A DNA stretch of 64,000 nucleotides from positions 4,501-68,500 of the forward strand of contig CAWERH010000039.1 in assembly GCA_963811315.1 (NCBI GenBank). Direction: 5' to 3'. Positions 5,364-33,121 of this stretch are shown here, one piece after another. Numbering within the stretch: position 1 is the first letter of the stretch; every line of letters begins with the position of its first letter. This DNA is from an uncultured delta proteobacterium (GTDB lineage: Bacteria > Desulfobacterota > Binatia > UBA9968). The position numbers and the translations under genes were made by a program. Under the pieces are notes generated by a model, which was not told the DNA's origin, ran no database searches, and saw nothing but the letters and a program-made list of their open reading frames with translations.

Positions 5364-6452
5364 GTGGGAATTATCGACGCAGACACTCATATCGACGAAA
5401 CGGACGCGACTTGGGAATACATTCAGGAAGACGACTTGCCCTACAAGCCGTCGACGGCTTATCCATCGAATCCGGACCCAAAACTGCCGCCGGCGCGTTA
5501 TTGGGTGATCGACGGCAAGCGTCAGGTGCGCTTCATTCGCAGCGATAAAGATTCGGGCACGACCGTGGCGACCCGCGAGCTGCTGGATGTCAAAGCACGC
5601 CTGAAGCATATGGATGAGTTGGGCACGGACATACAGGTGATTTATCCGACGTTGTTTCTCATGGAAGCGACGGAAAAGCCGGAAATCAATACCGCGATGC
5701 GACGCAGCTATAATCGTTGGTTGGGCGAGCGCTGCGGCGAATCGGGCGGCAGATTGCGTTGGGTGTGCATGCCGCCGCTGCAGAATATGGACGCGACTGT
5801 CGAAGAACTGACCTGGGCTAAAGAGCATGGCGCCTGCGGTGTTTTGAAAAAAGGTGACCGGGAAGTGGGTAAATATCCGGCCGATCCATACTTTGAACGG
5901 CTGTATGCCGAAGCCGAGAAACTCGATATGCCGATCTGTCTGCACACCGGATCCGGGATTCCGGATTTTTCGCCGGCGCGAGAATTCTCCCACGGTCAGT
6001 TCATGCGCACGAAGGCGGCAGTGATCAATGGAGTGCTCGGCCTGGTGCTGCACAAGATCCCCTTAAAGTTCCCCAAGCTGCGCATTGGCTGCATCGAAGC
6101 CGGTTCGATGTGGGCGCCGTTCGTGGCTTACGATTTAAAGCGCCAGGCTTTAAAACAGCAGGGACGTGAGTCGGTAGGGGTTCTCGGTGTGCCGCTGATC
6201 GACATTCCGGCGAACGTCTTCAAAGACAACCGAATCTATGTGACGTGTCAAGTGGACGAAGATTTGCCCTACATCCTCAAAACCATCGGTGAAGATAATT
6301 TGATGGTCGGATCGGATTACACCCACCGCGACCCGTCAATGGAACTGGAGTTCCGCAAGGAATTGGAAGGACGCGCCGACAAAGGCGACATCCCGCAGGC
6401 GTCGGTGCAGAAGATTCTTTACGACAACCCGAAGGCGTTCTATGCGCTATAA
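5364..6452 (+). CDS. amidohydrolase-2 family protein
   Basis: 362 aa, GTG start after SD AAGGAG: VGIIDADTHIDETD...YPTLFL...MVGSDYTHRDP. Intact. Confidence 0.85.
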   Translation: MGIIDADTHIDETDATWEYIQEDDLPYKPSTAYPSNPDPKLPPARYWVIDGKRQVRFIRSDKDSGTTVATRELLDVKARLKHMDELGTDIQVIYPTLFLMEATEKPEINTAMRRSYNRWLGERCGESGGRLRWVCMPPLQNMDATVEELTWAKEHGACGVLKKGDREVGKYPADPYFERLYAEAEKLDMPICLHTGSGIPDFSPAREFSHGQFMRTKAAVINGVLGLVLHKIPLKFPKLRIGCIEAGSMWAPFVAYDLKRQALKQQGRESVGVLGVPLIDIPANVFKDNRIYVTCQVDEDLPYILKTIGEDNLMVGSDYTHRDPSMELEFRKELEGRADKGDIPQASVQKILYDNPKAFYAL

Positions 6453-6522: not shown

Positions 6523-7074
6523 ATGATCATTCTCAGTCCGGAAGGAAAAGCGCAGACCTCAGGGGCAAAAATCGCGAGCTTGCCGCAGTTCACCGAACTG
6601 CGCGGCAAAGTGGTCGGTTGGCTCGACAACAGCAAGCCCAACGCCGACAAGCTGGCGGAACGGTTTGGCGAGCTTTTAAAAGAAAAATACGGCGTGGCCA
6701 ACATGATTACCAGGCGCAAACTGACCGCGCAGCAAGGCGCGCCGAAACAATATCTCGACGAGCTCGCATCGCAGGCCGACTTTGTCATCTGCGGCCTGGG
6801 TGATTGAGGCTCGTGCACGTCGTGGAGTGTCCACGACTCCCTCGAAATTCAAAAGCGCGGCCGTTTTGCGATCACGCTGATCACCCACGCTTTCGTGGCG
6901 CTGGCAAAATCCGAGAAGGAAGCTTTTGGCGCGCCCGATCACCCGGTGTTGGTCGTGCAGCATCCTATCGGCACGGTCAAAATCGAAGAAGTTAACAAGA
7001 AGGCCGAGGCGGCCTTCGATCAAGCTGGTAAAAATCCTGCTCGACGCCGGAAACGGCGCGGTCAAAGTCGCTAG
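6523..7074 (+). CDS. UGSC-motif selenoprotein (UGSC-family (seleno)protein), copy 1; in-frame UGA at 6805-6807 read as selenocysteine
   Basis: The ORF tool stops at TGA 6805-6807 (..FVICGLGD*). The same frame continues GSCTSWSVHDSLEIQKRGRF... to TAG 7072-7074. The downstream peptide is conserved with paralog 18780-19343. A SECIS-like hairpin sits 11 nt after the UGA. SD AGAGGAG lies 6 nt before the ATG. Confidence 0.7.
6819..6837 (+). other. candidate bacterial SECIS stem-loop GUCGUGG-AGUGU-CCACGAC
   Basis: A perfect 7-bp stem with a 5-nt G-containing loop starts 11 nt 3' of the UGA. The 27 nt tcgtgcacgtcgtggagtgtccacgac are identical to paralog 19071-19097, while flanking synonymous sites have diverged. 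Confidence 0.6.
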
Positions 7075-7303: not shown

Positions 7304-8357
7304 ATGGCAGAACAACCACTTCAAGCGGAACGATTCGAAATTCCCGACGACCTTTGGGCGGCGCAGGCTTTTTTTGAAGAAAAGGGATGGTCCGATGGTT
7401 TGCCGATCATTCCGCCGACGGAAGAGCGGGTGGCGCAGATGCTCGGCGGCGACGACCCGAAAACCGGACGAGTTGATCGGCGCGGTGCCGCCGCGCTGGG
7501 CGCAGGCGAGCGTCGAGAAGATCGCGATCAATGGCGTCATGGCCGGATGCAAACCGGAGTACATGGCAACCCTGATTGCCGCGGTCGAAGCGATCACCGA
7601 TCCCAAGCTCAATCTTTATGCGTTGCAGGCGACCACGGGCGGACCGGCGGTGATGATCATCATCAACGGCCCGATCCGCCATAAGCTCAACGTCAACGGC
7701 GGGCCCAACGCGTTGGGCGAAGGGTGGCGCGCCAACGCCACCATCGGCCGGTTCGTGCAATTGATCAAACGCAATATCGGCGGCTCCTATCCGGGCACCA
7801 CCTGCAAGGCGACGCTTGGCTGGCCGGGAAAATATTCGATCTGCGTCGGCGAAAATGAAGAGGCGAGTCCGTGGGAACCGCTGCACGTGGAGCGCGGTTT
7901 CAAAGCCGAGCAAAGCACGGTGACGGCGATCAGCGCCGATGCTTCAATACGAGCGTCGGATTTGGACAGCTCGAAAGCGGAAGGCGTGCTGATCAATTTC
8001 GCGCAGAAAATGGACGGCCCGTCCGGGCCGGAAGCGATCATGGTCATTTGCCCGGAGCATGCCAAGATCATTGCCGATGACGGCTTCAGTAAGAAAGACG
8101 TGCAGAAATTTATCTGGGAGCGCGCCGCGTACCGGATGAAGGATTTGCCGGACGAGACCTTCGCGCAACGGGTCAAACGGCGCAGCGATCTGAAGCTCAC
8201 CCGCGACAGCATCATTCCGGTGACCGATAGGCCGGAGGACATACTCGTCATCGTCGCCGGCGGTGACGGCTCGCAGTCGCAGTACATCCACGTCTGGGGT
8301 CAGAGCACGCCGGAAGGCGGGTCGACGCGCAGCGTCACGAAACTCATACGGGATTAA
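7304..8357 (+). CDS. conserved hypothetical protein genetically linked to the UGSC selenoprotein (partner, copy 1); frameshift at the A4 run 7460-7463
   Basis: MAEQPLQAERFEIPDDLW..GLPIIPPTEERV (ORF 7304) continues in ORF 7239-8357 as ..ELIGAVPPRWAQASVEKIAINGVMAGCKPEY...GWPGKYSICVGENEE... It is paralogous to 19885-20967 along its whole length. Confidence 0.7.
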
Positions 8358-8405: not shown

Positions 8406-8418
8406 AACGCATTGTCCG

Positions 8419-9440
8419 ATGTCTTACCCTCGCCCGCTTGCGGGAGAGGGAAGGGTGAGGGCGTGCATCGACGCGTTATTAATTATCAGCCTGCTTTTGA
8501 GCTTTGTTGTCCTGGTAGCGAAATTTGCTTCGCCGCCGACAAGCTGCGCATCAGTTACTCGGGCACGACGACGAGCAACGCGCTTCTTTGGGTGACCAAG
8601 GAAGCGAAACTTTTTGACAAGAACGGCATCGACGCGGAAGTGCTTTATCTGGCGGCGTCGCTCGGCCAGACCGCGTTGATCGCGGGCGAGACCCAGTTCG
8701 CGGTCTACACGGGACTGCTGATGACGCCAACCCGCCTGCAAGGCGCCGACGTTACGATGATCGCCGGGTTTCTAAATTATCTGGTCTCGCGCTTGGTCGT
8801 GCGTCCGGACATCAAGACCGCCGCGGATTTAAGAGGCAAACGTTTGGCCGTGTCGCGTTTCGGCACGGCGTCGGATTTCGGTACCCGCTTGATGGTGTCC
8901 AAGCTCGGTTTGAATCCCGACACCGACGTCACGATCTTGCAGATCGGCGACACGCCCACCCGGGTCGCCGCACTGATGGCCAAGAGCGTCGACGGCGCGA
9001 TCTTCGATCCGCCCGATCACAAAAAGGCCATCGAAAACGGCGGCCGCATCATGATGAACTTGGAGGAAACCGCGATTCCGTATCAGCATGCCGGTTTGAT
9101 GACGACGCGAAAGTACATCGCCGCCCGGCCGGACATCGTTCGGCGGGTGGTCAAAGCGATTGTCGAGGGCGCCGCGGTGGTGCGCAAAGATCCGGAGACC
9201 ACCAAGCGGGCGCTGTCGATCCGCATGCGCATCAAAGATCCCAAAGACCTCGAAGAAACCTATCAGCAGCTGCGCGGCTTCACGCAAGCCAAACCCTATC
9301 CAAGCCTGGAAGGTTTCAAAGCGATCTTGAACGATTTGTCCAAGCGCGTGCCCGCGGCGAAAAATGCCGATCCGAAAGATTTTGCCGATCTCCGGTTCGT
9401 CGAAGAACTGGATAAGTCGGGTTATATCGATGGACTCTAA
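8419..9440 (+). CDS. NMT1/SsuA-like periplasmic substrate-binding protein; frameshift near 8545
   Basis: The signal-peptide frame MSYPRPLAGEGRVRACIDALLIISLLLSFVVLVAKFA shifts into AADKLRISYSGTTTSNALLWV... The gene is a tandem paralog of 9494-10471. Confidence 0.75.
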
Positions 9441-9470
9441 AGGCGTGAGGCTTGAGGCGGGAGGCTAGAG
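9441..9470. repeat. 7-mer tandem array AGGCGTG AGGCTTG AGGCGGG AGGCTAG
   Basis: It follows the TAA stop at 9438-9440 directly. Confidence 0.4.
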
Positions 9471-9493
9471 TCGTGTGGACAAAGACGTATTTT

Positions 9494-10471
9494 ATGCTTG
9501 AAAAGTTAACGCCGATTCTCACTGTAATTCTGGCTGCAGTTTTGTTGCTGCGCTCCGCATCGGCCGGCGCCGCCGATAAGATTCGTATCGGTTACTCCGG
9601 CGCGACGGTCAGCAACGCGATGCTCTGGGTGACCGACGAAGGCAGACTGTTTCAAAAAAACGGCATCGATCCGCAAATCCTCTATTTGCAAACGACGCTC
9701 GGACAGACGGCGATGATCGCCGGTGAAATCGACATGTGCGTCTACTCCGGCAGTCTGCTCTCGGCGGCGCGCTTGCAGGGAGTCGACGTGGTGATGGTCG
9801 TAAGTTTTCTCAACAAGCCGCTCTATCGGCTGGTGGTTCGCCCCGAGATTCGCACGGTCGCCGATCTCAAGGGAAAACGGCTCGGCATCACGCGCTTCGG
9901 CACTGTCACCGATTCGATGTCCCGGCTCCTGATCAACAAACTCGGACTCGATGCCGAGAAAGACGTTTCTTATATTCAGGTCGGTGATGTGCCAATCCTG
10001 TTAGCTTCCTTGTCGTCAGGCAAGATTATCGACGGCGCGATCATTCAGCCGCCTTATTATTTGAAGGCGGTGGCCACCGGCATGCGCGTTTTGGTGAATA
10101 TGCAAGAGATGGACATCCCGGTCCAACAAACCGGGCTCAATACCACGCAGAAGTTCATCGCGAAAAATCCCGATGTCGTGCGGCGGGTAGTCAAGTCGGT
10201 GATCGAAGGGATCCATCTGATGCGCACCAATCCCGCCGTGGCCAAGCGGGCGCTCTCCAGGCGCATGCAGATCAAAGATGAAAAAGAGATCGAAGACACC
10301 TATCAATTGCTGAAGAGTTTCGTGCAGATCAAGCCGTATCCGACTCTGGAAGGCTTCAAAACCATTTTCGAAGATCTGGCGAAAAGAGTTCCGGCGGCAA
10401 AGAACGCCAATCCCAAGGAATTTGTCGACACCCGGTTTATCGAAGAGTTGGATAAGCTCGGGGTTTATTGA
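9494..10471 (+). CDS. NMT1/SsuA-like periplasmic substrate-binding protein
   Basis: MLEKLTPILTVILAAVLLLRSASAGAADKIRIGYSG... Intact. The ATG at 9494 is preferred over the ORF-tool start at 9452 because it gives a proper signal peptide. Confidence 0.85.
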   Translation: MLEKLTPILTVILAAVLLLRSASAGAADKIRIGYSGATVSNAMLWVTDEGRLFQKNGIDPQILYLQTTLGQTAMIAGEIDMCVYSGSLLSAARLQGVDVVMVVSFLNKPLYRLVVRPEIRTVADLKGKRLGITRFGTVTDSMSRLLINKLGLDAEKDVSYIQVGDVPILLASLSSGKIIDGAIIQPPYYLKAVATGMRVLVNMQEMDIPVQQTGLNTTQKFIAKNPDVVRRVVKSVIEGIHLMRTNPAVAKRALSRRMQIKDEKEIEDTYQLLKSFVQIKPYPTLEGFKTIFEDLAKRVPAAKNANPKEFVDTRFIEELDKLGVY

Positions 10472-10524
10472 CGCATTGGAGCGCCAGTGATACGCGATGC
10501 TTGACGGATAATTGGGGAGGAACG

Positions 10525-11520
10525 ATGTTGAGAATACAAAGATCGCTGATGGGTGTCGCTTTGATTGTGGCTTTCGCCACTCCTGCCCTGGGGCAAAGCC
10601 TGCCCAAAGTCCGCGCCGCCTACACATCCATAAGCATCCAATTCGATGCGGTTTACATCATGAAGGAGCTCAACCTGCCGCGGAAATACGGCTTGGATGC
10701 CGAAATTCTTTTTGTGCCGGTGAGTTCGCGCGCCGTGCAGGCGGCGCTCGCGGGCGAGATTCAATTTATCACCAGTGGCGGCGTGGCCAATATCAATGCG
10801 AACGTCACAGGCGCCGATTTCACCGGGCTTACCGCGACACTCAATACTTTTGTCTTCAAGGTCTTCGCGAGCCCGGAGATCAAAAAGCCTGAGATGTTAA
10901 AGGGCAAGAAGGTCGGCATTTCCCGTCTCGGCGGCGCCAGCGATTTTTCTATTCGCTATGCGCTAAATTACTGGGGTCTCGTCCCCGACAAAGACGTTGC
11001 CATCATCCAGGTGGGCGGCGAACCGGAGTCGCTTCTGGCGCTACAAAACAAAGCCGTGGACGCGGCGATCTTATCGGAACCGTTTGCAAGCCTGGCAAAG
11101 CGCAATGGCTCAGTGCTGCTGGCTGATTTAAGTCAGCTCGGCGTGCCTTACACGATGCACGGCTTCGGGGTGCGCAAGAGTTACATTCAGGCCAATCGGG
11201 ACGTTGTCGTCCGATTCATGAAAGCCTATCTCGAAGGCATCTATGTTTTCAAAACCAACAAGGACATTGCGTTGAACGTCCTGAAAAAATATACCCGGCA
11301 GGACGATCTTTCCCTCGTACAAGTGGCCTATGAGGAAATGTCCCAGAAGCTTATCCGCAGAGTCCCGTACCCCAACCGCGAAGGGATTCAGACGATCATA
11401 GATCAGCTCGCCAAGACCCGGCCGGAAATGAAAAATCTCAACCCCGGCGACTTCATCGATCCGTCGATCTTGAAAGAAATCGAGGACAGCGGGTTTATTA
11501 AAAAGTTGTATGGAAATTAG
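10525..11520 (+). CDS. NMT1/SsuA-like periplasmic substrate-binding protein
   Basis: ATG at 10525 after SD GGAGG: MLRIQRSLMGVALIVAFATPALGQSLPKVRAAYTS... Intact. Confidence 0.85.
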   Translation: MLRIQRSLMGVALIVAFATPALGQSLPKVRAAYTSISIQFDAVYIMKELNLPRKYGLDAEILFVPVSSRAVQAALAGEIQFITSGGVANINANVTGADFTGLTATLNTFVFKVFASPEIKKPEMLKGKKVGISRLGGASDFSIRYALNYWGLVPDKDVAIIQVGGEPESLLALQNKAVDAAILSEPFASLAKRNGSVLLADLSQLGVPYTMHGFGVRKSYIQANRDVVVRFMKAYLEGIYVFKTNKDIALNVLKKYTRQDDLSLVQVAYEEMSQKLIRRVPYPNREGIQTIIDQLAKTRPEMKNLNPGDFIDPSILKEIEDSGFIKKLYGN

Positions 11521-16007: not shown

Positions 16008-17021
16008 TCAACGGTAGCCGGCATCGTCGGCAGGCAGACCACGTTCTTGGACCTCCACGAGGTAGCGCCAGCAGTCCGGCTGGGTGCCGTCGATGTCGGT
16101 GAAGCCGTAGATGGGGGCGAGCTGTCCGCTGGAGACGACCTTACCCGTCCAGCGCGCAACCTCCGGGTCCGCTGCGAGGGCGGCGACCGCGCGGCCGACG
16201 TAGGTCGGCGACTCGGAGATGCAAAAGTGCGGCATGCGGGCGGTCGCGTCCCGCCAGTTTGCTTCGGTCACGCCGTACGCGTCGAGCATCTTCTCCGAAC
16301 GCAGCCAGCCCGGAGTTACGGCGACGGCCGCGCCGTGGTGCGGGGCCAGCTCGTGACTCTGCGCGAGAGCCATGCGCTGCACGGCGTTTTTGACCAGGTC
16401 GTAGAAGAATCCCACCTGGTGGCGGTACGCCGCGTTGTACTCTGCGGTCCCGTCGGTCATCTCGATGACCAGCCCGCCGGGGCGGCGGATGAGCAGCGGC
16501 AGGGCGTGGTGGCTGGTGATCGCATGCGTGTCGATGCCCAGGCGCAGCATTCGCAGCCCGCCGGCGAGGTCGTGCTCCCACAGCTTGGTGTTGAACTGGA
16601 GGTAGGTGTCGCCGCCCCAGATGTCGTTCACGAGCACGTCGAGGCGGCCGTGGTCTCGGTCGATGCGCTGGACGAGATCGCGCACCTGCTCGCTTTCGAG
16701 GTGATCCACCCGCAAGGCGATTCCCACGCCCCCGGCGGCGGCGATCAGCTCACCGGTCTCTTCGATCGTCTCCGGCCGGTTGATTTCCGACCGGCCTGCC
16801 CGGCTGCTGCGCCCGGTGGCGTAAACTGTCGCACCCGCGCGGGCAAGCTCTACGGCAATCGCACGTCCGGCGCCGCGCGTGGCGCCTGCGACTAACGCCA
16901 CTTTCCCGGTTAATGCTCCAGCTTTTGCTTCATTCTTCGCTGTGGCTTCCATTGGCATTTTCTTCTTGCGCGCACCCTTCCGCGCGCCACGAAACTTAGG
17001 TGCGTTTTCAACAAGCCTCAT
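16008..17021 (-). CDS. short-chain dehydrogenase/reductase (SDR) family oxidoreductase
   Basis: ..GKVALVAGATRGAGRAIAVELARAGATV.. (TGxxxGxG Rossmann motif). The ATG at 17019-17021 overlaps the TGA of the upstream amidohydrolase in an ATGA arrangement. The +strand ORF 15930-16895 is an antisense artefact of ~70% GC. Confidence 0.8.
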   Translation of the reverse strand: MRLVENAPKFRGARKGARKKKMPMEATAKNEAKAGALTGKVALVAGATRGAGRAIAVELARAGATVYATGRSSRAGRSEINRPETIEETGELIAAAGGVGIALRVDHLESEQVRDLVQRIDRDHGRLDVLVNDIWGGDTYLQFNTKLWEHDLAGGLRMLRLGIDTHAITSHHALPLLIRRPGGLVIEMTDGTAEYNAAYRHQVGFFYDLVKNAVQRMALAQSHELAPHHGAAVAVTPGWLRSEKMLDAYGVTEANWRDATARMPHFCISESPTYVGRAVAALAADPEVARWTGKVVSSGQLAPIYGFTDIDGTQPDCWRYLVEVQERGLPADDAGYR

Positions 17022-18114
17022 AGCCCATAAAACTTCCTCGGATTGTCACACAAGATCTTTTCCACGAGACTTGGCGCCACGTCTTCGCGCGCCTTCATCT
17101 GGGTCACCAGATGAGCTTGTTCAGCGGGGTCGTTGTGACCGTAGTCGGAGCCGGTGAGCAGGTGGCCTTCGCCGGTGTACTTGATTAGGTAGGGAATATC
17201 TTCGTCGGCCTCGCAGGCGACGAAGAAACGGCAATCTTCGAAAAGATCGGCAGGGGATTGCCACGATGCTTTCCAGCGTTTGGTGTTGTCGCGCCGTAGC
17301 TTGTGGATCAAGTAGGGTATCCAACTGGCGGAAGCTTCGATGAAGCCGAAGCGCAGTTTTGGAAACATGTCGGGAATCTGATTGAGCACGAGATCGCGAA
17401 ACGCGTGCAGGGGCGGAAAGCCGGAGTGAGACCATTGCCGATTGCGCTCCAGATCGAACATCGCGGTGACGGCCGGGGTGCCGGAGCCGGTGTGAATGCA
17501 GATCGGTAGATCGAGTTCCATCGACGTTTGATATACCGGGAAAAAGTACGGGTTGTCCAAGGTCAAGTTGCCTTCCATGCCGCGGAAGAATACCCCGACG
17601 GCGCCGTTTTGCTTGGCCCACTTCAGCTCCTGCACCGATTCCTCGATGCAACGCAGCGGCGGGATCGCCACCCAGTGGATGCGGTCGTGACTCTGCGCGC
17701 AGGCTTGCGCCATGAAACGGTTATAGGCGCGGCTCAACGCCACGTCGAGCTCGGCGTCGTCGGTGAGGTAGATCAGAAACAGAGTCGGATAAACCACCTG
17801 AGCCGCGATGCCGCCGCGATCCATATCGGCGAGCCGGGCCGGGACGTCGGTCAACTCTCGGCACGCGACCTGAATGTCTTTTCTGTTCGATTGGATTTTC
17901 GACGCCGAGGGGTGACGAGACGGAAGCCGCCCTTGCCGACCGGCTTGGGAAAAATGTTGCCGTCGATCAGCCAGGTCGCATTCCAGCCGCCGTATAACGT
18001 GTCGTCCGGCAGAGACAGCAAAACCGGCCGGCGCGGGTACATCTCCTTGTCGATCATCTGCCACATGGCTTCCGATTCGGCTACGTGAGTATCGGCATCG
18101 ATGATGGGTTGCAT
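17018..18114 (-). CDS. amidohydrolase-2 family protein; frameshift at the G4 run near 17908-17911
   Basis: N-terminus MQPIIDADTHVAESEAMWQ..GKGGFRLVTP (ORF 17851-18114) joins ..SASKIQSNRKDIQVACRELTD...PICIHTG...TGSDYGHND..FYGL (ORF 17018-18064). Paralog of 1533-2646. Confidence 0.75.
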
Positions 18115-18213
18115 ATTTTTAATCCTTCCTTCGAAAGCGCAGTTATATCATAAGTCAGCTCTGCACTCAGGCGTTCTTTCTTCTATGCTGAGCAACTGTC
18201 GAAGTCATCTCGC

Positions 18214-18276
18214 GAAGATTTTCAGCTAATGCAAAGACGAGATTCTTCGCCTTCGGCTCAGAATGACATTGAGTCA
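18214..18276. repeat. degenerate MITE/REP-like hairpin copy
   Basis: gtcatctcgcgaagattttc...gagattcttcgccttcggctcagaatgac. The left arm lacks the CTGAGCCGAAG segment. Confidence 0.4.
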
Positions 18277-18779
18277 CAGTTCTCGATGGTGAAAAACCCC
18301 GGCTTAGACGTAGCATCAATACTGACTCCGATGTTATGGCAGAAAACTCAAGTCGACGAGCTGCGGCATGAAATCAAGACTGCGACCGACCAACGCTTGC
18401 ATCGACAACGTGCCGCCGGCGATGTAGATCACTTCAACGTCCAGTTGGTTCTGTTTAAGAATACCGGCGTCCTTGGCGATGCTGAAGGCACGGCTTCGGT
18501 GCTCGCCGGGGAATTGGTGCCGACCCGCAGAGATGTCAACTGCGCCGCAGCTATACTCGGACCGATAAGAAACAGTGCGGCGGCAAGGATTACCCAGGCA
18601 TAGCGCATCGATGAAGGAATGGATTTCAAATGAGATTCTCGCTGGGTTACGACGCTAGAGCTAGAACAATTGCCCGGACCTGTCAACGCGGAATCGCCGG
18701 CCGCTCAGGTTGCAGACACAGGATGACTTTGCCTATATAGAAACAGTCAAGTTTCGCGCTTCTTAGGAGGATTAGGTTC

Positions 18780-19343
18780 ATGGCGACGATTAAATTTCTC
18801 GATCCCCGAGTGGTGATCAATCCCAAAGACCAGCCGCTGGTGCCGGGTCTGGATACGCTCGAAGGAAAAGTTATCGGCATCATCGATAACGGGCAGGCCA
18901 ATTCGACGACGATGTTTCAAGAGCTGGCGCAACTGATGCAAGAAAAACTTCATACCAAGGAAGTTCTGTTCAAAACCAAACCGACGCACATGCAGGGCGC
19001 GCCGAAACCGATCATGGAAGAAATCCTCAACCGGTGCGACGCGGTGATCACCGGTTTAGGCGCTTGAGGGTCGTGCACGTCGTGGAGTGTCCACGACGCC
19101 ATCGAATTGCAAAAGAAGGGAAAGCCGACGGTAACCCTGTGCCAGTCGATCTTTATGGCGCTGGCGCGCACCGAGGCGAAGTTTTTCGGCATCGCTAAAT
19201 TACCTCTGGTCGAAATCCCGCATCATCCGAGCGGCGGCGCACGGCCTGGTGAGCATCGAGCGGATGCCGAGGGCGCGGTTAGTTTGGTTAATGAGCAGTT
19301 GACGCTGGGTGGGGCGGCGTTGAAGAAGACGCGACAGCGGTGA
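18780..19343 (+). CDS. UGSC-motif selenoprotein, copy 2; in-frame UGA at 19065-19067 read as selenocysteine
   Basis: ..VITGLGA U GSCTSWSVHDAIELQKKGKPTVTL... continues to TGA 19341-19343. The peptide after the UGA aligns with copy 1 (SLEIQKRGRFAITL.. versus AIELQKKGKPTVTL..). SD AGGAGG lies 9 nt before the ATG at 18780. Confidence 0.7.
19079..19097 (+). other. candidate bacterial SECIS stem-loop GUCGUGG-AGUGU-CCACGAC (identical to 6819-6837)
   Basis: It starts 11 nt after the UGA and its nucleotide sequence is conserved between the paralogs. Confidence 0.6.
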
Positions 19344-19465: not shown

Positions 19466-19864
19466 ATGAACGCGAGCCCGGAAGCTGCGGAAAAATCCAA
19501 CCGATGCCGAGCGTTTGCTCTGGCAAAACTTCGTTTCTGGCAAGTTGACGGTTGCAAATTTCGCCGTCAACAACCCTATAGGAAATTACATTGTTGACTT
19601 TGTTTGTTTAGAAAAAAGATTGATTATCGAGGTCGACGGCGGACAGCATGCTGAACATATGAATTACGGATACCGACCGTGATGCTTGGTTACGAAATCC
19701 GAGGGTTATGTAATTTTAAGATTCTGGAACAACGATGTGTCTAAGAAGATAGATGGCGTCAAGGAAGTGATATTTCAATCCTTGCAAAGCACCCCCTACC
19801 TTAGTCCTTCCCCGCAATCGGGGGAGGAATGGTTGAGAAGCTAGGAAGATCGCATCGAGCACGA
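19466..19864 (+). pseudogene. DUF559 (Vsr-like endonuclease domain) gene with at least 4-5 frame disruptions; pseudogene or error-dense
   Basis: Reconstructable as M-TRARKLRKNPTDAERLLWQ|KLRFWQVDGCKFRRQQP|IGNYIVDFVCLEKRLIIEVDGGQHAEH..DRDAWLRN..GYVILRFWNNDV..IFQSLQ across three frames. Each break is at a short homopolymer. The gene sits in a ~540-bp lower-GC insert between the selenoprotein gene and its partner. Confidence 0.55.
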
Positions 19865-19884: not shown

Positions 19885-20967
19885 TTGGAGTTACCGACAG
19901 TGCAAAACCTCACCTCTAACCTCATCGAAGTCGAAGACAGCTGGGAAGCGGTCAATGACTGGTTCTGCAACGAAAAACTGAGTGACGGTTTGCCGATCGT
20001 GCCGCCTACGGCGGAGCGGGTCGAACGAATGCTCGAGCGCGACGAATCGCGGGATCCGCAGGAAGTCATCGGGCCAATCCCGCCGAAGTGGGCGCCTTGT
20101 TCGATCGAGAAGATTGCCATCAATGCGGTCATGGCCGGCTGTTTGCCGGAATATTTGCCGGTGATCATCGCGGCGGTGGAAGCGATCTGCGAACCGCGCT
20201 TCAATCTCTATGGCGTGCAAGCGACTACCGGATACGTCGGCCCGGCGCTCATGCTCAACGGTCCGATTCGCAAAGCACTCAACGTCAATTGCGATGCCGG
20301 CGTGTTTGGTCCCGGCTTTCGCTCCAACGCGACCATCGGCCGCGCCATTCGATTGATTCTCATCACCGTCGGCGGCGGCTACCCGGGCGACACCGATCGC
20401 TCGACTTTTGGCTGGCCGGGCAAGTACACCATGTGCTTTGGCGAAAATGAGGAGAAGAGTCCGTGGGAGCCGTATCACGTGGAGTTCGGTTTTAAACCTG
20501 ACGAAAACAGTGTGACGGTGTTCGGCATCAATGGTTTTTTGCCGATCCACACGGCCGGCAGTCGCGGCGAGCAGGCGCTTGCTTCGCTCGCAGAAGTTAT
20601 TCGCATGCACCACGGCGTGAGTCATCTCGACGTCGGCAGTTTTGGCGGCGGCACACCGCTGGTTGCCCTGGGCGTCGAAGACGCCGAGATCATGGCGCGC
20701 GACGGCATCACCAAGAAACAAGTCAAGGACTTTCTCTGGGAGCACGCGTCGCTCAAATTTTCCGAAGTTCCGGCGCGCCGCAAAGGCCACAAAGACGACG
20801 CCGAGTTGCTGCGCGAATCGCCCAACGTTACCCCCGATGGCGTCGTCCATCTTTCCACGAAGGCCGAAGACATCATGGTCATCGTGGTTGGCGGCAAGCA
20901 TCGCCATTCGGTATTTCTGCCGATGTGGACCGGGCGCAATACGCTGTGCGTGATCAAGCCAATTTAA
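19885..20967 (+). CDS. conserved hypothetical protein genetically linked to the UGSC selenoprotein (partner, copy 2)
   Basis: 360 aa and intact: ..SDGLPIVPPTAERV..EKIAINAVMAGCLPEY..NLYGVQATTG..GWPGKYTMCFGENEEKSPWEPYHVE.. TTG start at 19885. The 19891-21120 minus-strand ORF is antisense. Confidence 0.75.
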   Translation: MELPTVQNLTSNLIEVEDSWEAVNDWFCNEKLSDGLPIVPPTAERVERMLERDESRDPQEVIGPIPPKWAPCSIEKIAINAVMAGCLPEYLPVIIAAVEAICEPRFNLYGVQATTGYVGPALMLNGPIRKALNVNCDAGVFGPGFRSNATIGRAIRLILITVGGGYPGDTDRSTFGWPGKYTMCFGENEEKSPWEPYHVEFGFKPDENSVTVFGINGFLPIHTAGSRGEQALASLAEVIRMHHGVSHLDVGSFGGGTPLVALGVEDAEIMARDGITKKQVKDFLWEHASLKFSEVPARRKGHKDDAELLRESPNVTPDGVVHLSTKAEDIMVIVVGGKHRHSVFLPMWTGRNTLCVIKPI

Positions 20968-21010
20968 TAGCAATTGGAGTAGTGGAGTGATGCGGAAGAA
21001 GATCGAGGAT
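20968..21010. repeat. tandem repeat array (TGGAGTAG/TGGAGTGA then GAGGATG x3) overlapping the start region of the next gene
   Basis: ttggagtagtggagtgatgcggaagaagatcgaggatggaggatggaggatcg. Confidence 0.35.
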
Positions 21011-21999
21011 GGAGGATGGAGGATCGCCCGCGCGGCGGCGATTTTCATGCTCGCGTTTCTGTTCGCCACGGTTTGTAATGCGCAGGAGAAATTTCGCTTT
21101 CCGATCGCTGAATCGTCCAAGACCTTGAGCTATGGTCCGCTCTGGGTCGCCTCGAAGATGGGTTTCTTTGACAAGGAAGGCTTGGACGTGCCGATCGTCA
21201 CCATGCGCGGTTCGCCGCTGGCGATTCAGGCGCTGACCGCCGATTCGATTTATATCGCCAACGCGACCGTCGATACCCTGATCAACGCCTACGAGAAAGG
21301 CGCGGATATCACGATGATCGGCGGGCCTGATCAACGGGCTTGGACTTGAGCATGATCGGCGGCAAGCCCTATAAGACCTATGCCGACCTGCGCGGCACGA
21401 CGATCGGCACGCAGACGCTGACTTCCGGCACTGGATTCGCTCTTCGCTTGGTGCTCAAGGTGCACGGCTTGGAATATCCGCGCGACTACGCGCTGCTCAA
21501 CATCGGCGGCGCTTCGGACCGCTATCAAGCGCTGACGTCCGGTCAAATTTCTTCCGCCCCGGTCGGCGTGCCTCTCGATCTGGTTGCCAAACAGCAAGGC
21601 TTCAACATCATCGGTTATTTTGCCGATGACCAACCGAACTTTCAGTTTAATGTCTACATCGTCAAACGCTCCTGGGCGGAAAAAAACCGGCCGCTGACGG
21701 TGCGCTTCATGAAAGCGATGGCGTCGACCATGCGCTGGATGGCGGACAACCGCGACGCTGCCTGCACCTATCTTTCAAAGGAAATGGCGATCAGCGTCGA
21801 GCATTGCCGCTATGCCTCCGACTACAACTGGAAAAGCCGCATCTGGGACCGCAATGCCGATATCAACATCGAGGGCGTGCGCACGCTGATCAAAATCACC
21901 GCCGAGCAAGGCATTCTCAAAGAACCTTTACCCCAGCCGGCGAAATACCTCGATCAAAGTTATCTTAAGCAGGCGCTGGCGGAACTGGCGAAGAAATAA
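20987..21999 (+). CDS. NMT1-like periplasmic substrate-binding protein (subtype B, paralog of 29216-30186); frameshift near 21335
   Basis: ORF 20987-21349 (..FLFATVCNAQEKF..LWVASKMGFFD..TMIGGPDQR) joins ORF 21340-21999 (LDLSMIGGKPYKTYADLRG...LEYPRDY...). Confidence 0.75.
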
Positions 22000-22056
22000 C
22001 AAGGCGAAGAGGCACGAGGCTTGAGACGGAAAACTACAAGGGATTGAGGAGATCGC

Positions 22057-23058
22057 ATGAGACAATCAACGCGTTTGGGATTTTTGATTTTGTTCTTGAG
22101 CGCGGTGGCTGTCGCCGCTTCCGCGAATGCTCAGGACAAGATACGCATGGGGCTCAGCTCGGTGAGCGGGTTGCACAGCGCCGTGTGGGTCGCGGCGGAA
22201 AAGGGACTGTTTCGCAAGCACGGTATCGACGCCGAAGTGATCGTCACCGGGCAGGGCGGTACTGCCGGTATCAGCGCGCTGATCGCCAACGACGTCCAGA
22301 TAGTCAATTCAGCGGGTGATGTTCTAGTTGCGGCGGCGTTGCGCGGCGGTGACACCGTGATGATCGCGGGGGTCGTCAACAAGGGGCTGCAGCGATTGGT
22401 CACCAAACCGGAGATCAAAGCGCCGGCGGATTTGAAGGGCAAGCGGATCGGCGTCACCCGGATCGGCGCGGTCTCTCATTCGGTTCTGCTGATGATGCTG
22501 CAGCAGTGGAAAATGAGCCCCAGCGACGTGCAGGTCATGCAGCTCGGCTCGTCGCCGAGCATGCTGGCGAGCCTCGACAAGGGCGGCATCGAGGGCGCGG
22601 TGCTGACGATCCCGTCGATGTTCGTCGCCGAGGACCGCGGCTACCGTGTCTTGCTCGATATGGGGGATACCGACATTTACTATCTGCACACCATGGTCGC
22701 GACGACGCGCCAATACATCAAGACCAATCGCGACAAGGTTTTGCGATTTCTCAAAGGGTATGTCGAAGGTATCGCGTTCGTGAAGCAACACAAGAAGGAA
22801 AGTCTGGATATCGTCAAGAAAAAACTTCGGCTTGGCCCGGAGCAGGAACGCAATCTCGAACGGTCCATCGACCTGTTGATAGCGAAATACTACGAGTCGA
22901 TTCCCTATCCGTCGCTGCGCGGCGTCGAAACCGTGCTCGGGTTCGTCGAAAAGGACAACCCGAAAGCGAAAACCGCCGATCCGAAGTCTTTTGTCGATGA
23001 CAGTTTGCTGCGTGAGATCGAAGCCAGCGGGTTCGTCAAAACGCTTTACCAGCGCTAG
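22057..23058 (+). CDS. NMT1/SsuA-like periplasmic substrate-binding protein
   Basis: MRQSTRLGFLILFLSAVAVAASANAQDKIRMGLSS... 333 aa, intact. Confidence 0.85.
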   Translation: MRQSTRLGFLILFLSAVAVAASANAQDKIRMGLSSVSGLHSAVWVAAEKGLFRKHGIDAEVIVTGQGGTAGISALIANDVQIVNSAGDVLVAAALRGGDTVMIAGVVNKGLQRLVTKPEIKAPADLKGKRIGVTRIGAVSHSVLLMMLQQWKMSPSDVQVMQLGSSPSMLASLDKGGIEGAVLTIPSMFVAEDRGYRVLLDMGDTDIYYLHTMVATTRQYIKTNRDKVLRFLKGYVEGIAFVKQHKKESLDIVKKKLRLGPEQERNLERSIDLLIAKYYESIPYPSLRGVETVLGFVEKDNPKAKTADPKSFVDDSLLREIEASGFVKTLYQR

Positions 23059-23082
23059 GAAACGTTCGTTTCGGACAAGCCG

Positions 23083-24079
23083 ATGAAAATTCTCTGCTTT
23101 GGTCTTTTTGCCGTCGGCGTTCGCGCTTATTTTCGGCAGCCATGCCGACGCGCAGGACAAAATTAGAGTGGGGTTGAGCTCGGTGAGCGCTCTTCATGGC
23201 GCCATGTGGGTGGCTGAGCAAAAAGGATTGTTTCGTAAGCATGGCATCGAAACGGAAATCATCGTCACGGGCCAGGGTGCGACGGCGGGAATCGGCGCGC
23301 TGCTTGCCAACGATATTCAGATCGCCAGCGCCGGCGGAGATGCTCTGATTAACGCCGCCTTGCGCGGCGGCGAGACCGTGATGATCGCCGCCGGTATCAA
23401 TAAAGGATTGAACAGGATTATGGTGCGGTCGGATATCAAAACTCCGGCCGACCTTAAGGGAAGAAAGATCGGCGCGACTCGCGTCGGCGCCGTCTCTCAC
23501 TCGGTTCTTTTGATGATGCTCAAGCGCTGGAACATGAGCCCGGCGGATGTTCAGGTTCTCCAGCTCGGTTCTTCGCCGAACATGCTCCAAGCCTTGGACA
23601 AGGGCGGCATCGACGGCGCTGTGATGACGATCCCGTTCGTGTTCATCGCGGAAGATCGAGGTTTTCGCGTTTTAGTCGATCTGGCGGAAACGGATATTTA
23701 TTATCTTCACACGATGATTGCGTCCACGCGAAGCTATATCAAGGCCAATCGCGACAAGGCGTTAAGATTTCTCAAGGGTTTTCTCGAAGGCATCGCTTAT
23801 TTCAAGCATAACAAAAAGGAGAGTCTCGATATCGTCGGAAAAAAACTCCGTGTCAACGCAGACCAAGAGCGGAATCTCGAGCGCTCCTACGATCTTCTGG
23901 CGACGAAATATTACGAAGCCACGCCTTATCCGTCGCTGCGCGGCGTCGAAACCGTGCTCGGAATCGTCGAAAAGGACAATCCGAAAGCGAAAACTGCCGA
24001 TCCGAAATCTTTTGTCGATGACAGCTTGCTCCGCGAGATCGAACAGAGCGGTTTCGTAAAGACGCTGTACAAGAATTGA
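23083..24079 (+). CDS. NMT1/SsuA-like periplasmic substrate-binding protein, tandem near-duplicate of 22057-23058; frameshift in the T5 run 23104-23108
   Basis: MKILCFGL then a shift into LPSAFALIFGSHADAQDKIRVGLSS... The remainder is colinear with the upstream paralog. Confidence 0.75.
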
Positions 24080-25369: not shown

Positions 25370-26535
25370 GTGGATTTCAATCTTCCCGAAGAGCTGCAAG
25401 TTCTAAAAGACACCGTCCGCAAATTCGTCGATCGCGAGTTGATTCCGCTCGAGCGCGAGTGCCGCCCCGAGGGCGAGGACATGCCCGAGCAGTACATCAA
25501 GCCGCTGCAAGAAAAAGCCAAGGCCATCGGTCTATGGCTGCTCGATGTGCCGGAGGAATACGGCGGCGCCGGCCTGGATCTCATGAGCCGTTGCGTGATC
25601 ATGGAAGAGGTCGCGCGCACGGTGGCGATCCCGTTTCGCTATGCGCCGATCTTCGGGCCGGAAGTGCGGCCGGTATTGTTCCACTGCAACGAGGAACAGA
25701 AGAAGCGATTTTTGCTGCCGGTGATCGAAGGCAAGATGCGGATTTGCTTTGCGCAAACCGAGCCCGATGCCGGCAGCGATCCAGCCGGGGATGAAGACGC
25801 GGGCGGTAAGAGACGGCGATCATTACATTATCAATGGCACCAAGCGCTTCATCACCGGCGCAAAGCACGCCGACTACGCCCAAGTCATTGCGGTCACGGA
25901 CCCGCAGAAGGGCGCGCGCGGCGGCGTGAGTTGTTTCATGGTCAGCATGAAGGCGCCGGGCGTTACGCTAGAGCGGCTGTGGCCGACGATGATGGGCGAC
26001 ACGCCGGGACAGATTCATTTCGAAAACGCGCGAGTGGCTGCCGCCGACATGATCGGCGGGGAAGGGCAAGGGTTTTGCGATCGCGCAAAAATGGATCGAG
26101 GAAGGGCGCATCCGCGGCCATGGCGCGCGTCCGGTCGGCATCGCGTCGCGCGCGCTCGACATGATGATCGAGTATTCCAAAGTCCGCACGACCTTCGGCC
26201 AGCCGCTGGCGAACCGCCAGGCGATTCAATTCATGATCGCCGACTCGGCGATGGAACTGCATGCCTGCCGCTTGATGGTTTACGAGTGCGCCTGGCGTCA
26301 CGACCGCGGCGAAGATATTCGCCAGCTTTCTTACATGACGAAAATTCAGTGCGCCGAGATGGCGAGCCGGGTGGTCGACCGCTCGATTCAAGTGCACGGC
26401 GGCTTGGGACTAATGCGCGAGCTGCCGCTCGAGTGGTGGTATCGCCAGGTGCGCAGCATCCGCATCACCGAAGGCACGCCGGAAGTTTTGCGCTGGCGTT
26501 TGGCAGAGCACATCATTAAGAATCACAAAGGATGA
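25370..26535 (+). CDS. acyl-CoA dehydrogenase; two frameshifts (G4 run 25791-25794 and T4 run 26073-26076)
   Basis: Three ORFs concatenate: MDFNLPEELQVLKDTVRKF..EPDAGSDPAG | MKTRAVRDGDHYIINGTKRFITG..GEGQGF | AIAQKWIEEGRI...QVHGGLGLMRELPLEWWYRQVRSIRITEGTPEV.. Confidence 0.75.
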
Positions 26536-27959: not shown

Positions 27960-29171
27960 ATGTCTCCTAGTCAGATTTTAAAAGGCGTGCGCATTCTCGC
28001 TTTCACCACGGGCTACGCCGGTCCTTACGCCGGCAGGCTGCTTGCGGCCTACGGCGCGGAGGTGATCAAGATCGAGTCGAGGAAGGGCGGGCTCGATACC
28101 TTTCGCCATTACGGCCAGCACAAGGATATCGACGCCGCGCCGCGTTTCATCGAGTGCAACCTCGGCGTGCGCTCGTTTGCGGTCAATCTCAAACATCCGA
28201 CCGGCGCCAGACTGGTTCGCGAACTGGCCGGTAAATCGGATGCGATTCTGCAAAATTTTCGTCCTAGAGTGTTGGATAAGCTGGGTTTGGGTGACGACGA
28301 ACTGAGAAAACTTAATCCTAAACTTGTGGTTGTGAAATTGCCGGGCTTCGGTTCCGAAGGGCCGAAGAGCGGTTACGGCACTTGGGGATTTAATCTTACG
28401 GCTTTCTCCGGCATGACCTATCTGTGGAATCATCCCGAGCAGGATCGCCCCATCGGCAGTCAGGGCGTCTATCCCGATCACTTGGGTTTCGTTATGGGGC
28501 CGACGCTGCTGGTCGCGGCGCTGCTGAACAGCCGGCGTAGCGGCAAGGGCGTGACCATCGATTTGGCGCAGATCGAAGGCACGGCGTACACGCTCGGCGC
28601 GACTTACCTGGAAACCTCGGTGAACGGCGACGATCCTCAGCCGCAGGGAAATCACTACGCGCTCGCCGCGCCGCACGGCTGTTACCGTTGCCAGGGCGAT
28701 GACCGCTGGTGCGTTATTTCGGTGCGTGACGACGATGAGTGGCGCGCTTTCTGCCGCGTCATCGGCAGGGCGGAATTGATCAGCGACGCGCGTTTTACCG
28801 ATCTGCAAACCCGACTGGGGCATCGGACTGAGCTCGACGACATTGTCAGCGCGTGGACGCAAGCGCGGCCTGCGGAAGAGGTCATGACCCAGATGCAATC
28901 CGCCGGGGTGCCTGCCGGTGTGGTGCAGAGCGGCGCGGACCTGCTCAAGGATCCTCAACTGCGCCACCGCAACTATTTTTCGCCATTCGCCGATTCGTTG
29001 ATCGGTCCGTTTGAAATCCCGCGCAGTGGTTTCCTGTTCCGCGGCTTGAACGAAGAACCTCTGCGCTTACCCAATCGACTCGGCGCAGACAATGAGCCAA
29101 TTCTAACCGATTTGCTCGGTTATGATCAGGCAACGATCGAGCAATGGCGCCAGGAAGAAGTGCTCACATAA
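27960..29171 (+). CDS. CoA-transferase family III (CaiB/BaiF/BbsF-like)
   Basis: 403 aa, intact: ..VRILAFTTGYAGPYAGRLLAAYGAEVIKIESRKGG... Confidence 0.85.
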   Translation: MSPSQILKGVRILAFTTGYAGPYAGRLLAAYGAEVIKIESRKGGLDTFRHYGQHKDIDAAPRFIECNLGVRSFAVNLKHPTGARLVRELAGKSDAILQNFRPRVLDKLGLGDDELRKLNPKLVVVKLPGFGSEGPKSGYGTWGFNLTAFSGMTYLWNHPEQDRPIGSQGVYPDHLGFVMGPTLLVAALLNSRRSGKGVTIDLAQIEGTAYTLGATYLETSVNGDDPQPQGNHYALAAPHGCYRCQGDDRWCVISVRDDDEWRAFCRVIGRAELISDARFTDLQTRLGHRTELDDIVSAWTQARPAEEVMTQMQSAGVPAGVVQSGADLLKDPQLRHRNYFSPFADSLIGPFEIPRSGFLFRGLNEEPLRLPNRLGADNEPILTDLLGYDQATIEQWRQEEVLT

Positions 29172-29215
29172 ATTCTTAGGACCAACCCCATCGATTAAAT
29201 ACGAGAGGGATTCAG

Positions 29216-30186
29216 ATGTGGAAACGGGTTTTAGACACGGCTCATCCTCCTTTTGTTCCTCTCGTGGGCAATTCCGTGCTCACGCTCAAGAAGTCATTAA
29301 ACTCCATGCCAGCGTCGTAGCGAAAACATTCGGTTTTGGTCCCGTCTGGGTTGCGTCCAAGCAAGGATTTTTCAATCAGCAAAAACTCGACGTCGAGGTT
29401 CTCCTCATCCGCGGCTCGGACGTTTCCACGCAGGCTCTGGCCAGCGGCTCGCTGCAAGTTTCCGGCGCATCGGCCGACGCGCCAATCGCCGCCTTTGACC
29501 GCGGCTTGGACATGGTGATTATCGGCGGGATCATCAACGGTCTCAGCCAATCGCTCATGGGCGGCAAAAACTACAAAACCTATGAAGATTTGCGCGGCGC
29601 CACCCTCGGCGCCAATAGTCTTACCGCCGGCACGGCGTTCGCTCTGCGGCGCGTGCTCAAAGCCAAAGGCTTGGAATACCCGCGCGACTACAAGCTGATC
29701 AACGTCGGTGGCACGCCGCAGGCCCTGGCGGCATTGGCTTCAGGGCAGATCGCCGCGGCGCCGCTTTCTTTGCCGGTGAATTTTGTCGCCGAGGAACAGG
29801 GGTTCAATACCATCGGCCGGTTTATCGATGTGATTCCGCACTATCAGCTTTCGGTCTATTCGGTGATGCGGCCGTGGGCCGAAAAAAATCGCGGAGTCGT
29901 CGTCCGTTTCATGAGATCGATCTCATTGGCGGCGCGCTGGATATTCGCGAACAAGGATGCCGCAGTAGATTTGCTCGCCAAAGAGATGGGCCTCAAACGC
30001 GAGTACGCGCGCAAAGGCTGGGAGTTCTACACCGAAAAAGGGTTGTGGAGTCCGGTCGGCGACGTGACGCTTGACGGCCTCGCCATCGTCGCGCAAATCT
30101 ACGCGGAGCAAAACCAGCTCAAGGGACCGCCGCCCAATCCGGCCAAGTACGTCGATCAAAGTTATCTGCAGGAAGCGCTGAAATGA
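29216..30186 (+). CDS. NMT1-like periplasmic substrate-binding protein (subtype B, paralog of 20987-21999); frameshift(s) in the first 80 nt
   Basis: ATG 29216 gives MWKRVL. The signal-like TRLILLLFLSWAIP lies in a second frame and the mature part AHAQEVIKLHASVVAKTFGFGPVWVASKQG in a third. One or two indels are needed to join them. Confidence 0.65.
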
Positions 30187-30317
30187 AAAGCAGGCAATAG
30201 GCATTAGGCCAGTGAGATGCAAATGGCTCTTGCAATTCTTACTGCTAGTGCCTAGTCGCCTTCCCAGTCTCTTGAATATTTTTGGCTGTGCCCTTATAAC
30301 TCACCGATCACAAGGAG

Positions 30318-30870
30318 TTGAATCTTCCGAGAGTGATAAACCCGCCTACAAGTCTCAAAACCGATCGATTAAGTCTCAGAAAGGCAAAGTTGGCAGATGC
30401 GGAGGCGATTTTTCGCCAATACGCCACTGATCCTGAAGTCACCAAGTACGTAAGTTGGCGCGCGCACCGGAATCTCGAGGAGACCCGCGATTACATGCGT
30501 ATGTGTTCGCTCGCGTGGGATGTCGGCAGGGCATTCCATTGGGTGATCGAGCGCGCCGCAGACAAGCAGGTGATGGGCATGATGATCGCCCGCGTGGATG
30601 CCGGGAAATGGGAATTGGGTTACGTCCTGGCGCGGCAGCACTGGGGCGCAGGGCTTCATGACCGAAGCGTTGAAGGAGTTGATCGCTTGGGCGTTGAAGC
30701 AAAAAGATATTTACCGCGTTTGGGCGGTGTGCGACGTCGACAATCTCGCATCTGCGCGGGTGATGGAAAAATCGGGTATGCAACGCGAGGGCGTTTTACG
30801 GCGCTGGTCGGTGCATCCGAATCTCAGTCCCGAGCCCCGCGACTCGTATTGTTATGCGATTGTGAAGTAG
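30318..30870 (+). CDS. GNAT family N-acetyltransferase (RimJ/RimL-like); frameshift near 30648
   Basis: ..DRLSLRKAKLADAEAIF..WVIERAADKQVMGMMIARVDAGKWELGYVLARQHWG | QGFMTEALKELIAWAL..VWAVCDVDNLASARVMEKSGMQREGVLRRW.. Confidence 0.7.
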
Positions 30871-30871
30871 G

Positions 30872-30925
30872 GGAAAGGACTCGGTTGGAGTATTGGAGTA
30901 ATGGAGTATTGGAGTGATGGAAGGG
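30872..30925. repeat. 8-mer tandem array (TTGGAGTA/ATGGAGTA x5); an inverted copy of the same array is at 38182-38232
   Basis: ggttggagtattggagtaatggagtattggagtgatggaag. Confidence 0.45.
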
Positions 30926-30965
30926 AGCAGGTGCTCGATGACGGCATACCGAACTAGATGATTCC

Positions 30966-31990: not shown

Positions 31991-32020
31991 GAAGATATTT
32001 GCGAACCTCTCGGGGGATCC

Positions 32021-33006: not shown

Positions 33007-33121
33007 GAAGGCATAGGCATCAGGCAATAGGCAACAGTGGATAAAGGCAAAAGTAAAAAGGTGAAATAAGAGACGAAATTCTAAAGCGGCAATAAACGTT
33101 CTTAGCCACGGAGGTCGCGAT

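Follow-up and report, generated by a model that had tools for sequence, protein, structure and literature searches.

Does an in-frame UGA in the middle of a bacterial gene encode selenocysteine (Sec), and is the short hairpin behind it the signal by which it is read? This question is raised by the gene at positions 18780-19343 of a 64,000-nucleotide stretch of DNA (hereafter the window) from an uncultured delta proteobacterium (Desulfobacterota; Binatia; UBA9968; contig CAWERH010000039.1). An earlier reading, made from the letters alone (the sequence-only reading), had described this gene as the second UGSC selenoprotein gene in the window (copy 2), with a UGA at 19065-19067 and a hairpin identical to that of a first copy (copy 1). 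Our sequence analysis confirmed 18780-19343 as a real Sec-encoding gene of the UGSC family with a recoding hairpin. The best explanation of the whole, which we hold to be very probable, is that it specifies a UGSC (seleno)protein whose UGA-96 would be recoded through a selenocysteine insertion sequence (SECIS) hairpin, and that this protein would belong to a two-part enzyme together with the product of an adjacent gene (the partner). Copies 1 and 2 are two new members of a known selenoprotein family and carry a known type of recoding element.

Copy 2 can be translated in a single frame from MATIK through VITGLGA, the TGA (19065-19067) and GSCTSWSVHDAIELQKKGKPTVTL to the final TRQR, the TGA being its sole interruption. 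The peptide following this codon is GSCTSWSVHD, and the gene ends at a TGA of its own (19341-19343). The translation bears out the second UGSC gene, the position of its UGA and the layout that it shares with copy 1, and the good Shine-Dalgarno sequence ascribed to copy 2 was found as well (Table 1).

The same codon recurs throughout the close homologs. Dozens of homologous gene calls of 95 residues, 74-98% identical to the N-terminal half, stop exactly at the UGA codon of copy 2, several of them coming from Candidatus Binatia metagenome-assembled genomes (MAGs), and gene calls P0001-P0004 of the Joint Genome Institute (JGI) read the codon as tryptophan (W). Full-length homologs of the Cys form have CGSCT at the aligned position. 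A scan of metagenome contigs with the pattern TGA-GG-TC-TGY-AC...TGG...GAY returned at least 120 loci, and all listed matches are in-frame UGSC genes with the UGA; UGA occupies the U position in 122 metagenomic Sec-form genes. TGA is the most frequent ordinary stop of the window, where it ends 13 of the 26 surveyed genes (copy 2 among them), and an alternative genetic code with TGA as a sense codon was rejected on this ground. The standard code thus applies, and the UGA at 19065-19067 needs specific recoding. Database entries P0182, P0183, P0193, P0194 and similar ones hold N-terminal halves of 95 amino acids (aa) labelled 'predicted GTPase' or 'hypothetical protein'; the UGA in Sec-form UGSC genes thus leads to systematic mis-annotation of these halves.

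Both copies match the Pfam family PF24696 far above its cutoff of 25 bits (copy 2 with 140.0 bits, E 1e-40; copy 1 with 147.3 bits), with profile positions 2-171 of 172 covered. When the Sec was replaced by Cys for scanning, copy 1 also exceeded the 125-bit equivalog cutoff of NCBIfam NF041046 (127.8 bits). The residues G-S-C-T after the Sec/Cys position are invariant in 32 aligned members, the position itself being Cys in 28 and a TGA called as W in 4. Cultured hosts of the Cys form are found in Embleya, Yinghuangia, and Conexibacter. The first mention of a UGSC-containing protein dates from 2007 and describes a selenoprotein with unknown function that is also present in Hyphomonas neptunium (PMC1976440). 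In the Global Ocean Sampling data, UGSC then ranked among the most abundant selenoprotein families (255 Sec versus 21 Cys forms), was most frequent in non-marine samples and was already reported in fusion with a domain called 'Unknown_1' (PMC2398784). The sequence-only reading had spoken of an uncharacterized family. This is true of its function, which reviews from 2022 and 2026 still list as uncharacterized, but the family itself is named (UGSC; PF24696, NF041046) and has been in the literature since 2007/2008 (PMC1976440, PMC2398784). Copy 2 shares with it a full-length profile match, the U-G-S-C position, Cys homologs, and a SECIS directly after the UGA, and as no essential difference is apparent, it is a member. 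What is added here to the descriptions of 2007-2008 is a flavodoxin-like predicted fold and a near-obligatory linkage to the partner rather than an occasional fusion.

Shortly behind the UGA, the two copies share a run of 27 identical nucleotides, although their proteins are only 37.6% and their DNA only 51% identical; the next longest identical run measures 13 nt. In the window, this 27-mer, TCGTGCACGTCGTGGAGTGTCCACGAC, is confined to 6811-6837 and 19071-19097, no third site appearing with up to 3 mismatches, and shuffled sequences gave 0 occurrences. Since synonymous divergence (dS) is saturated outside the block by protein divergence, codon identity was compared in place of a sliding-window dS: all of the degenerate codons in the block (8/8) are identical between the copies, versus 20/40 of the conserved degenerate codons elsewhere (p ~0.004). 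In both copies, an 8-bp hairpin core begins 11 nt past the UGA, and the stem of copy 1 has 8 bp. For copy 2, folding confirmed the core that had been proposed at 19079-19097 and extended the stem to 19078-19098. The covariance-model search that had been suggested along with it was run on the window with a model built from 113 Sec-form homologs. It gave only two matches, both at the UGSC sites (70 bits, E ~1e-15), and the block is thus not a generic repeat.

The decisive signal for a SECIS, as far as sequences can tell, lies in the synonymous codons that are chosen for the same residues. We compared about 122 metagenomic Sec-form genes with 79 Cys-form genes, the latter taken from a genome scan with [CW] at the Sec position, which returned only Cys forms. 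The core stem pairs are formed in 87-99% of the Sec forms (87-100% in the set of 113 unique sequences) versus 37-99% of the Cys forms, with means of 7.9 versus 5.5 pairs (of 9) and mean minimum free energies of -13.1 versus -7.4 kcal/mol. Thr+4 is encoded by ACG or ACA in 110/122 Sec forms but in only 35/79 Cys forms (Fisher p = 2e-12), and Val+8 by GTC or GTT in 74/79 versus 25/60 (Fisher p = 1e-11). The contrast is sharpest for Ser+7, where AGT, the codon that places G-U in the apical loop, is used in 105 of about 122 Sec forms and in 0/79 Cys forms. Only in the Sec forms does the entropy of third positions fall across codons +3 to +10, to 0.07-0.8 bit as compared with 1.4-1.8 bit in the flanks. 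All 8 core pairs are retained by 88 of the 113 unique Sec-form sequences, the loop reads GUN in 100, and together the 113 have the 27-mer of the window as their consensus. The identity of the two copies thus reflects family-wide purifying selection on RNA and peptide, and no local event. The identical block had been put forward as the signature of a recoding element. The Sec-specific codon choice upholds that claim, whereas the special relation between the two copies dissolves into a family-wide consensus. Taken as comparative sequence evidence, these data support the view that the hairpin behaves as a bacterial SECIS.

Some 4% of the Sec forms (L099, L126, L147, L186, and L190) lack the consensus hairpin and show different hairpins further downstream. 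These outliers belong mostly to the GLGN-U and LVVD subtypes, and the UGSC family may have more than one SECIS solution.

The SECIS of Escherichia coli fdhF follows a spacing rule after the UGA and carries G-U in its apical loop. The UGSC hairpin resembles this type in its place within the coding sequence, its core 11 nt past the UGA, its short GC-rich stem, and the G-U in its apical loop. It differs in that no bulged U is evident, the loop has only 3 nt (GUN), and no Rfam family matches it. By analogy with fdhF, the hairpin 3' of UGA-96 would recruit SelB-GTP-Sec-tRNA(Sec) to the ribosome, and recoding would then be SelB-dependent. The hairpin lies within the codons for T-S-W-S-V-H-D (ACG TCG TGG AGT GTC CAC GAC), with selection on the RNA fixing their synonymous positions, which would explain why paralogs that are 38% identical share 27 identical bases.

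A number of observations weigh against a Sec-encoding gene with a SECIS. Domain scans of about 40 larger open reading frames (ORFs) found no selA, selB, selC, or selD in the 64-kb window, and a scan for transfer RNAs (tRNAs) found none, hence no tRNA-Sec. No family reached its gathering score in an Rfam scan of the whole window, and the folding energy of the single sequences is not significant versus shuffles (z = -0.7 and -1.7), the support for the hairpin coming from comparative data. Even there, compensatory changes are few (4 cells in 2 pairs), since the hairpin is so conserved that covariation is nearly absent. Copy 2 reaches only 110.2 bits (E 8.5e-32) against NF041046, under the equivalog cutoff, and although clearly homologous by this score would fall into a divergent subgroup. 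Finally, several frameshift-like gene splits show that the sequence quality of the window is imperfect. Could the in-frame TGA then be a nonsense mutation or a sequencing error, and the locus a pseudogene or a pair of unrelated short ORFs? The apparent 1-nt indels in other genes of the window and the habit of gene callers to split or truncate UGSC genes would fit such a view. We nevertheless find it scarcely credible, as the two paralogs have the TGA at one and the same codon, as do the 74-98%-identical gene calls and all of the at least 120 loci of the pattern scan, other homologs have Cys there, and the half 3' of the TGA stays in frame and is conserved at the protein level. It is likewise very improbable that the 27 identical bases result from amino acid conservation and codon bias, or from recent gene conversion, with no RNA element involved. 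In favor of this explanation are the conservation of the peptide SCTSWSVHD, the location of four of the nine pairs at non-synonymous positions, where they are partly formed in Cys forms too, and the minimal covariation. Against it, the Cys forms encode the same residues with other codons (AGC or TCG instead of AGT, ACC as frequently as ACG, GTG as GTC) and fall behind in the average number of pairs. As 113 distinct Sec-form sequences of many lineages have the same 27-mer as their consensus, gene conversion within the window is not needed to explain it.

If UGA-96 is read as Sec, what would the protein do? A structure model was made on the homolog P0001 (83% identical, with W at the Sec position). 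It shows a small five-stranded parallel alpha/beta sandwich of the flavodoxin-like type, not a thioredoxin fold, with Sec96-Gly-Ser-Cys99 at the N-terminus of a helix. Redox-active selenol/thiol pairs usually occupy this place, and the modeled fold and the motif together suggest that Sec96 and Cys99 may form a redox or nucleophile pair. Searches of PDB sequences with the UGSC and partner profiles gave nothing meaningful (the best hits being an Asp/Glu racemase, E 0.48, and a helicase, E 0.53).

The strongest functional clue for UGSC is its linkage to the partner. Of the 80 Cys-form genome loci, 79 have the partner gene as the immediate neighbor of UGSC on the same strand (the remaining one is a contig of 1.7 kb), and in 50 of the 56 Sec-form loci with enough flanking sequence it lies downstream. 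Conversely, loci fetched via the partner have a split Sec-UGSC gene just upstream in 3/3 cases. Fusions exist in both orders, UGSC::partner (in Sec and Cys forms) and partner::UGSC, and UGSC is the only recognizable domain fused to the partner. The partner family (~355 aa) comprises 4,954 clusters at 50% identity (E <= 1e-3); Cys86 is one of its invariant residues, and it carries a GLPxxPPT motif. It has no sequence relative in Pfam, NCBIfam, or PDB, no recurrent family emerged from an NCBIfam scan of 51 members, and its AlphaFold model, which is confident (predicted local distance difference test score, pLDDT, 90.8), has no structural neighbor. The partner probably corresponds to the domain that was called 'Unknown_1' in 2008. 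From gene linkage and fusions, we infer that UGSC acts in complex with the partner; in the case of copy 2, it would form a two-part enzyme with the product of 19885-20967 and serve as its catalytic or redox subunit.

The nature of this enzyme is best discussed by comparison with two groups of known selenoproteins. In a scan of 32 UGSC members, the GrdB model TIGR01917 was matched by 14 of them independently (best E 1.4e-4), GrdF by 8, TIGR01918 by 7, GrdH by 6, and PrdB by 1. The match of copy 2 covers the Sec region (residues 80-148 versus profile positions 331-393 of TIGR01917). The Sec motif of GrdB and PrdB is UxxC, extended to UxxCxxC in GrdB (PMC13188914). UGSC, with UGSCTSW, has the UxxC but not the further xxC. 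In a Chloroflexi-like relative (L212 and L213, 3440-4399), a gene for a thioredoxin-reductase-like flavoprotein (Pyr_redox_2) lies directly upstream of Sec-UGSC and its partner, with a CoA-transferase and NADH-dehydrogenase-like Fe-S subunits downstream; the UxxC pair might be reduced by this flavoprotein. Together with a catabolic context of amidohydrolases, CoA-transferases, and binding proteins, these observations favor the idea that UGSC and its partner constitute a Sec-dependent reductase of a new kind, which would work in the manner of component B of glycine, sarcosine, betaine, or D-proline reductase. One may speculate that its selenol would attack a substrate held by the partner and cleave a C-N or C-X bond, after which the selenoether or selenenylsulfide would be re-reduced. 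The idea is doubtful, as all scores stay far under the family cutoffs (15.3 versus 602 bits for TIGR01917, 12.2 versus 65 for TIGR01918), the Pfam GRDB model was not matched by any UGSC member, and the second Cys of the GrdB motif is absent. The partner resembles neither GrdE nor PrdA nor anything else, no grdA-like gene lies nearby (nor were any grd or prd genes seen in the window), and the hosts are aerobic soil and water lineages rather than amino acid fermenters.

In short, UGSC is like the selenoprotein B group (GrdB, GrdF, GrdH, PrdB; PF07355, TIGR01917/01918) in its UxxC, in its weak but recurrent matches to the Sec-bearing region, and presumably in working with a second, substrate-side subunit. 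It differs in size (~180 versus ~240-430 aa) and in the lack of a UxxCxxC motif, of a pyruvoyl proprotein partner, and of a grdA/grdC context, and it occurs in other phyla with another lifestyle. At the sequence level, the resemblance is a faint lead and not membership. Thioredoxin-fold selenoproteins (thioredoxin-, peroxiredoxin-, and glutaredoxin-like proteins with UxxC) also share with UGSC a redox-type UxxC at a helix N-terminus, and a thioredoxin-like fold was indeed proposed for UGSC in 2008 (PMC2398784). As some Chloroflexi loci moreover place the gene pair among housekeeping genes, UGSC might be seen as a free-standing thiol/selenol oxidoreductase of general redox homeostasis that needs no dedicated partner. 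We regard this as improbable in view of the flavodoxin-like five-stranded parallel alpha/beta sandwich, which is a different fold. To return to the two-part enzyme, it is tentatively conceivable, though not likely, that a widespread Sec- (or Cys-) dependent enzyme, so far undescribed, is made up of UGSC and its obligate partner, UGSC being related to the Sec domain of selenoprotein B but standing alone, and the partner being a new substrate-binding catalytic fold.

Table 1. Features of the two UGSC cassettes and their coordinates in the window
Feature	Position	Strand	Basis and remarks
UGSC-family selenoprotein gene, copy 2	18780..19343	+	Translation, 187 codons including Sec96; Pfam and NCBIfam matches
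In-frame UGA, U of the UGSC motif, read as selenocysteine	19065..19067	+	Translation; Cys/TGA homologs
Shine-Dalgarno sequence AGGAGG	18765..18770	+	Read directly; 9 nt 5' of the copy 2 ATG
27-nt block identical to 6811-6837, equal to the Sec-form family consensus	19071..19097	+	Exact search, codon comparison
SECIS hairpin (putative), 9 bp, with 8-bp core at 19079-19097 and apical loop GUG at 19087-19089	19078..19098	+	Folding; comparative pairs
Partner gene of copy 2, 360 aa	19885..20967	+	Invariant Cys86 (AxxMAGCxP), GLPxxPPT motif
Amidohydro_2 gene, divergent neighbor of copy 2	17018..18064	-	Pfam; 41% identical to the amidohydrolase of copy 1
Decayed DUF559 (endonuclease-like) remnant between copy 2 and its partner	19470..19787	+	Three-frame translation; Pfam DUF559, E 3.5e-20
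Three NMT1-like substrate-binding protein genes past the partner	20987..24079	+	First one split by a frameshift near 21340
UGSC gene, copy 1	6523..7074	+	UGA 6805-6807; hairpin core 6819-6837; same layout as copy 2
Partner gene of copy 1	7304..8357	+	1-nt frameshift within an A-run near 7455 divides the gene; 45% identity to 19885-20967
Amidohydro_2 gene upstream of copy 1	5364..6452	+	Pfam

The resemblance of the two copies extends to their surroundings (Table 1). Both share the order Amidohydro_2, UGSC, a partner of ~360 aa, and then arrays of NMT1-like binding proteins, and they are old paralogs of this whole cassette. One gene of the copy 1 type and one of the copy 2 type lie ~3 kb apart on a metagenome contig (L184), and the duplication is thus older than the split of the organism of the window from this relative. 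The claim of an old duplication, which had been based on moderate protein identity, is in this way strengthened. The same claim's companion, that two paralogs in 64 kb would be unusual, does not hold: such pairs recur in relatives (L184, and L169 with two UGSC genes) and are normal for the lineage.

Relatives also keep the cassette order, including an insertion of DUF559 between UGSC and partner. In the window, the remnant of this insertion carries frameshifts and a stop; in the close relatives L081, L082, and L088, it is partly intact at the equivalent position. In the relatives L081-L088, an NMT1-like gene is found where the window has 715 nt (18065-18779, from the amidohydrolase to copy 2) with no convincing ORF, a stretch that may be a deletion scar or an unrecognized element. 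Cassette 1 looks damaged as well. The C-terminus of copy 1 appears to be shifted by one extra base near 7021, so that its last ~18 residues (7015-7074) are unlike all orthologs, which end in AFDQLVNILL as in the +1 frame of the window. In its partner gene, the frame changes after an A-run, where CCGAAAACCGG is present and CCGAAACCGG is expected. Either assembly indel errors or early decay may account for this. Other genes are likewise split into overlapping ORFs in different frames, namely those of an NMT1-like binding protein (20987-21999), an acyl-CoA dehydrogenase (25370-26519), and a class A penicillin-binding protein (61416-63897, into transglycosylase and transpeptidase halves). The split genes suggest a sequence with indel errors, possibly from a long-read assembly.

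Genes for NMT1/THI5-like binding proteins are unusually dense in the window, with at least 12 in 64 kb (e.g., at 2968-3960, 8412-11520, 20987-24079, and 29122-34120). They are accompanied by five Amidohydro_2 genes, two family III CoA-transferases, an enoyl-CoA hydratase, and a thiolase-like gene. This NMT1/Amidohydro_2/CoA-transferase gene set resembles the catabolic islands that are typical of MAGs like those of Candidatus Binatia. Judged from its gene content, the cassette context suggests that UGSC and its partner may help to degrade an imported organic acid or amide.

As a selenoprotein call, the finding is chiefly a matter of annotation: gene callers cut UGSC at the UGA, and its 187-aa product is missed in most metagenomes. 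What remains of interest is the function of the UGSC-partner pair. The pairing and fusion with the partner, the flavodoxin-like predicted fold, and the faint link to component B of the reductases make it a concrete two-protein system for study. If the link to these reductases were true, UGSC and its partner might cleave C-N or C-X bonds reductively in aerobic bacteria of soil and freshwater.
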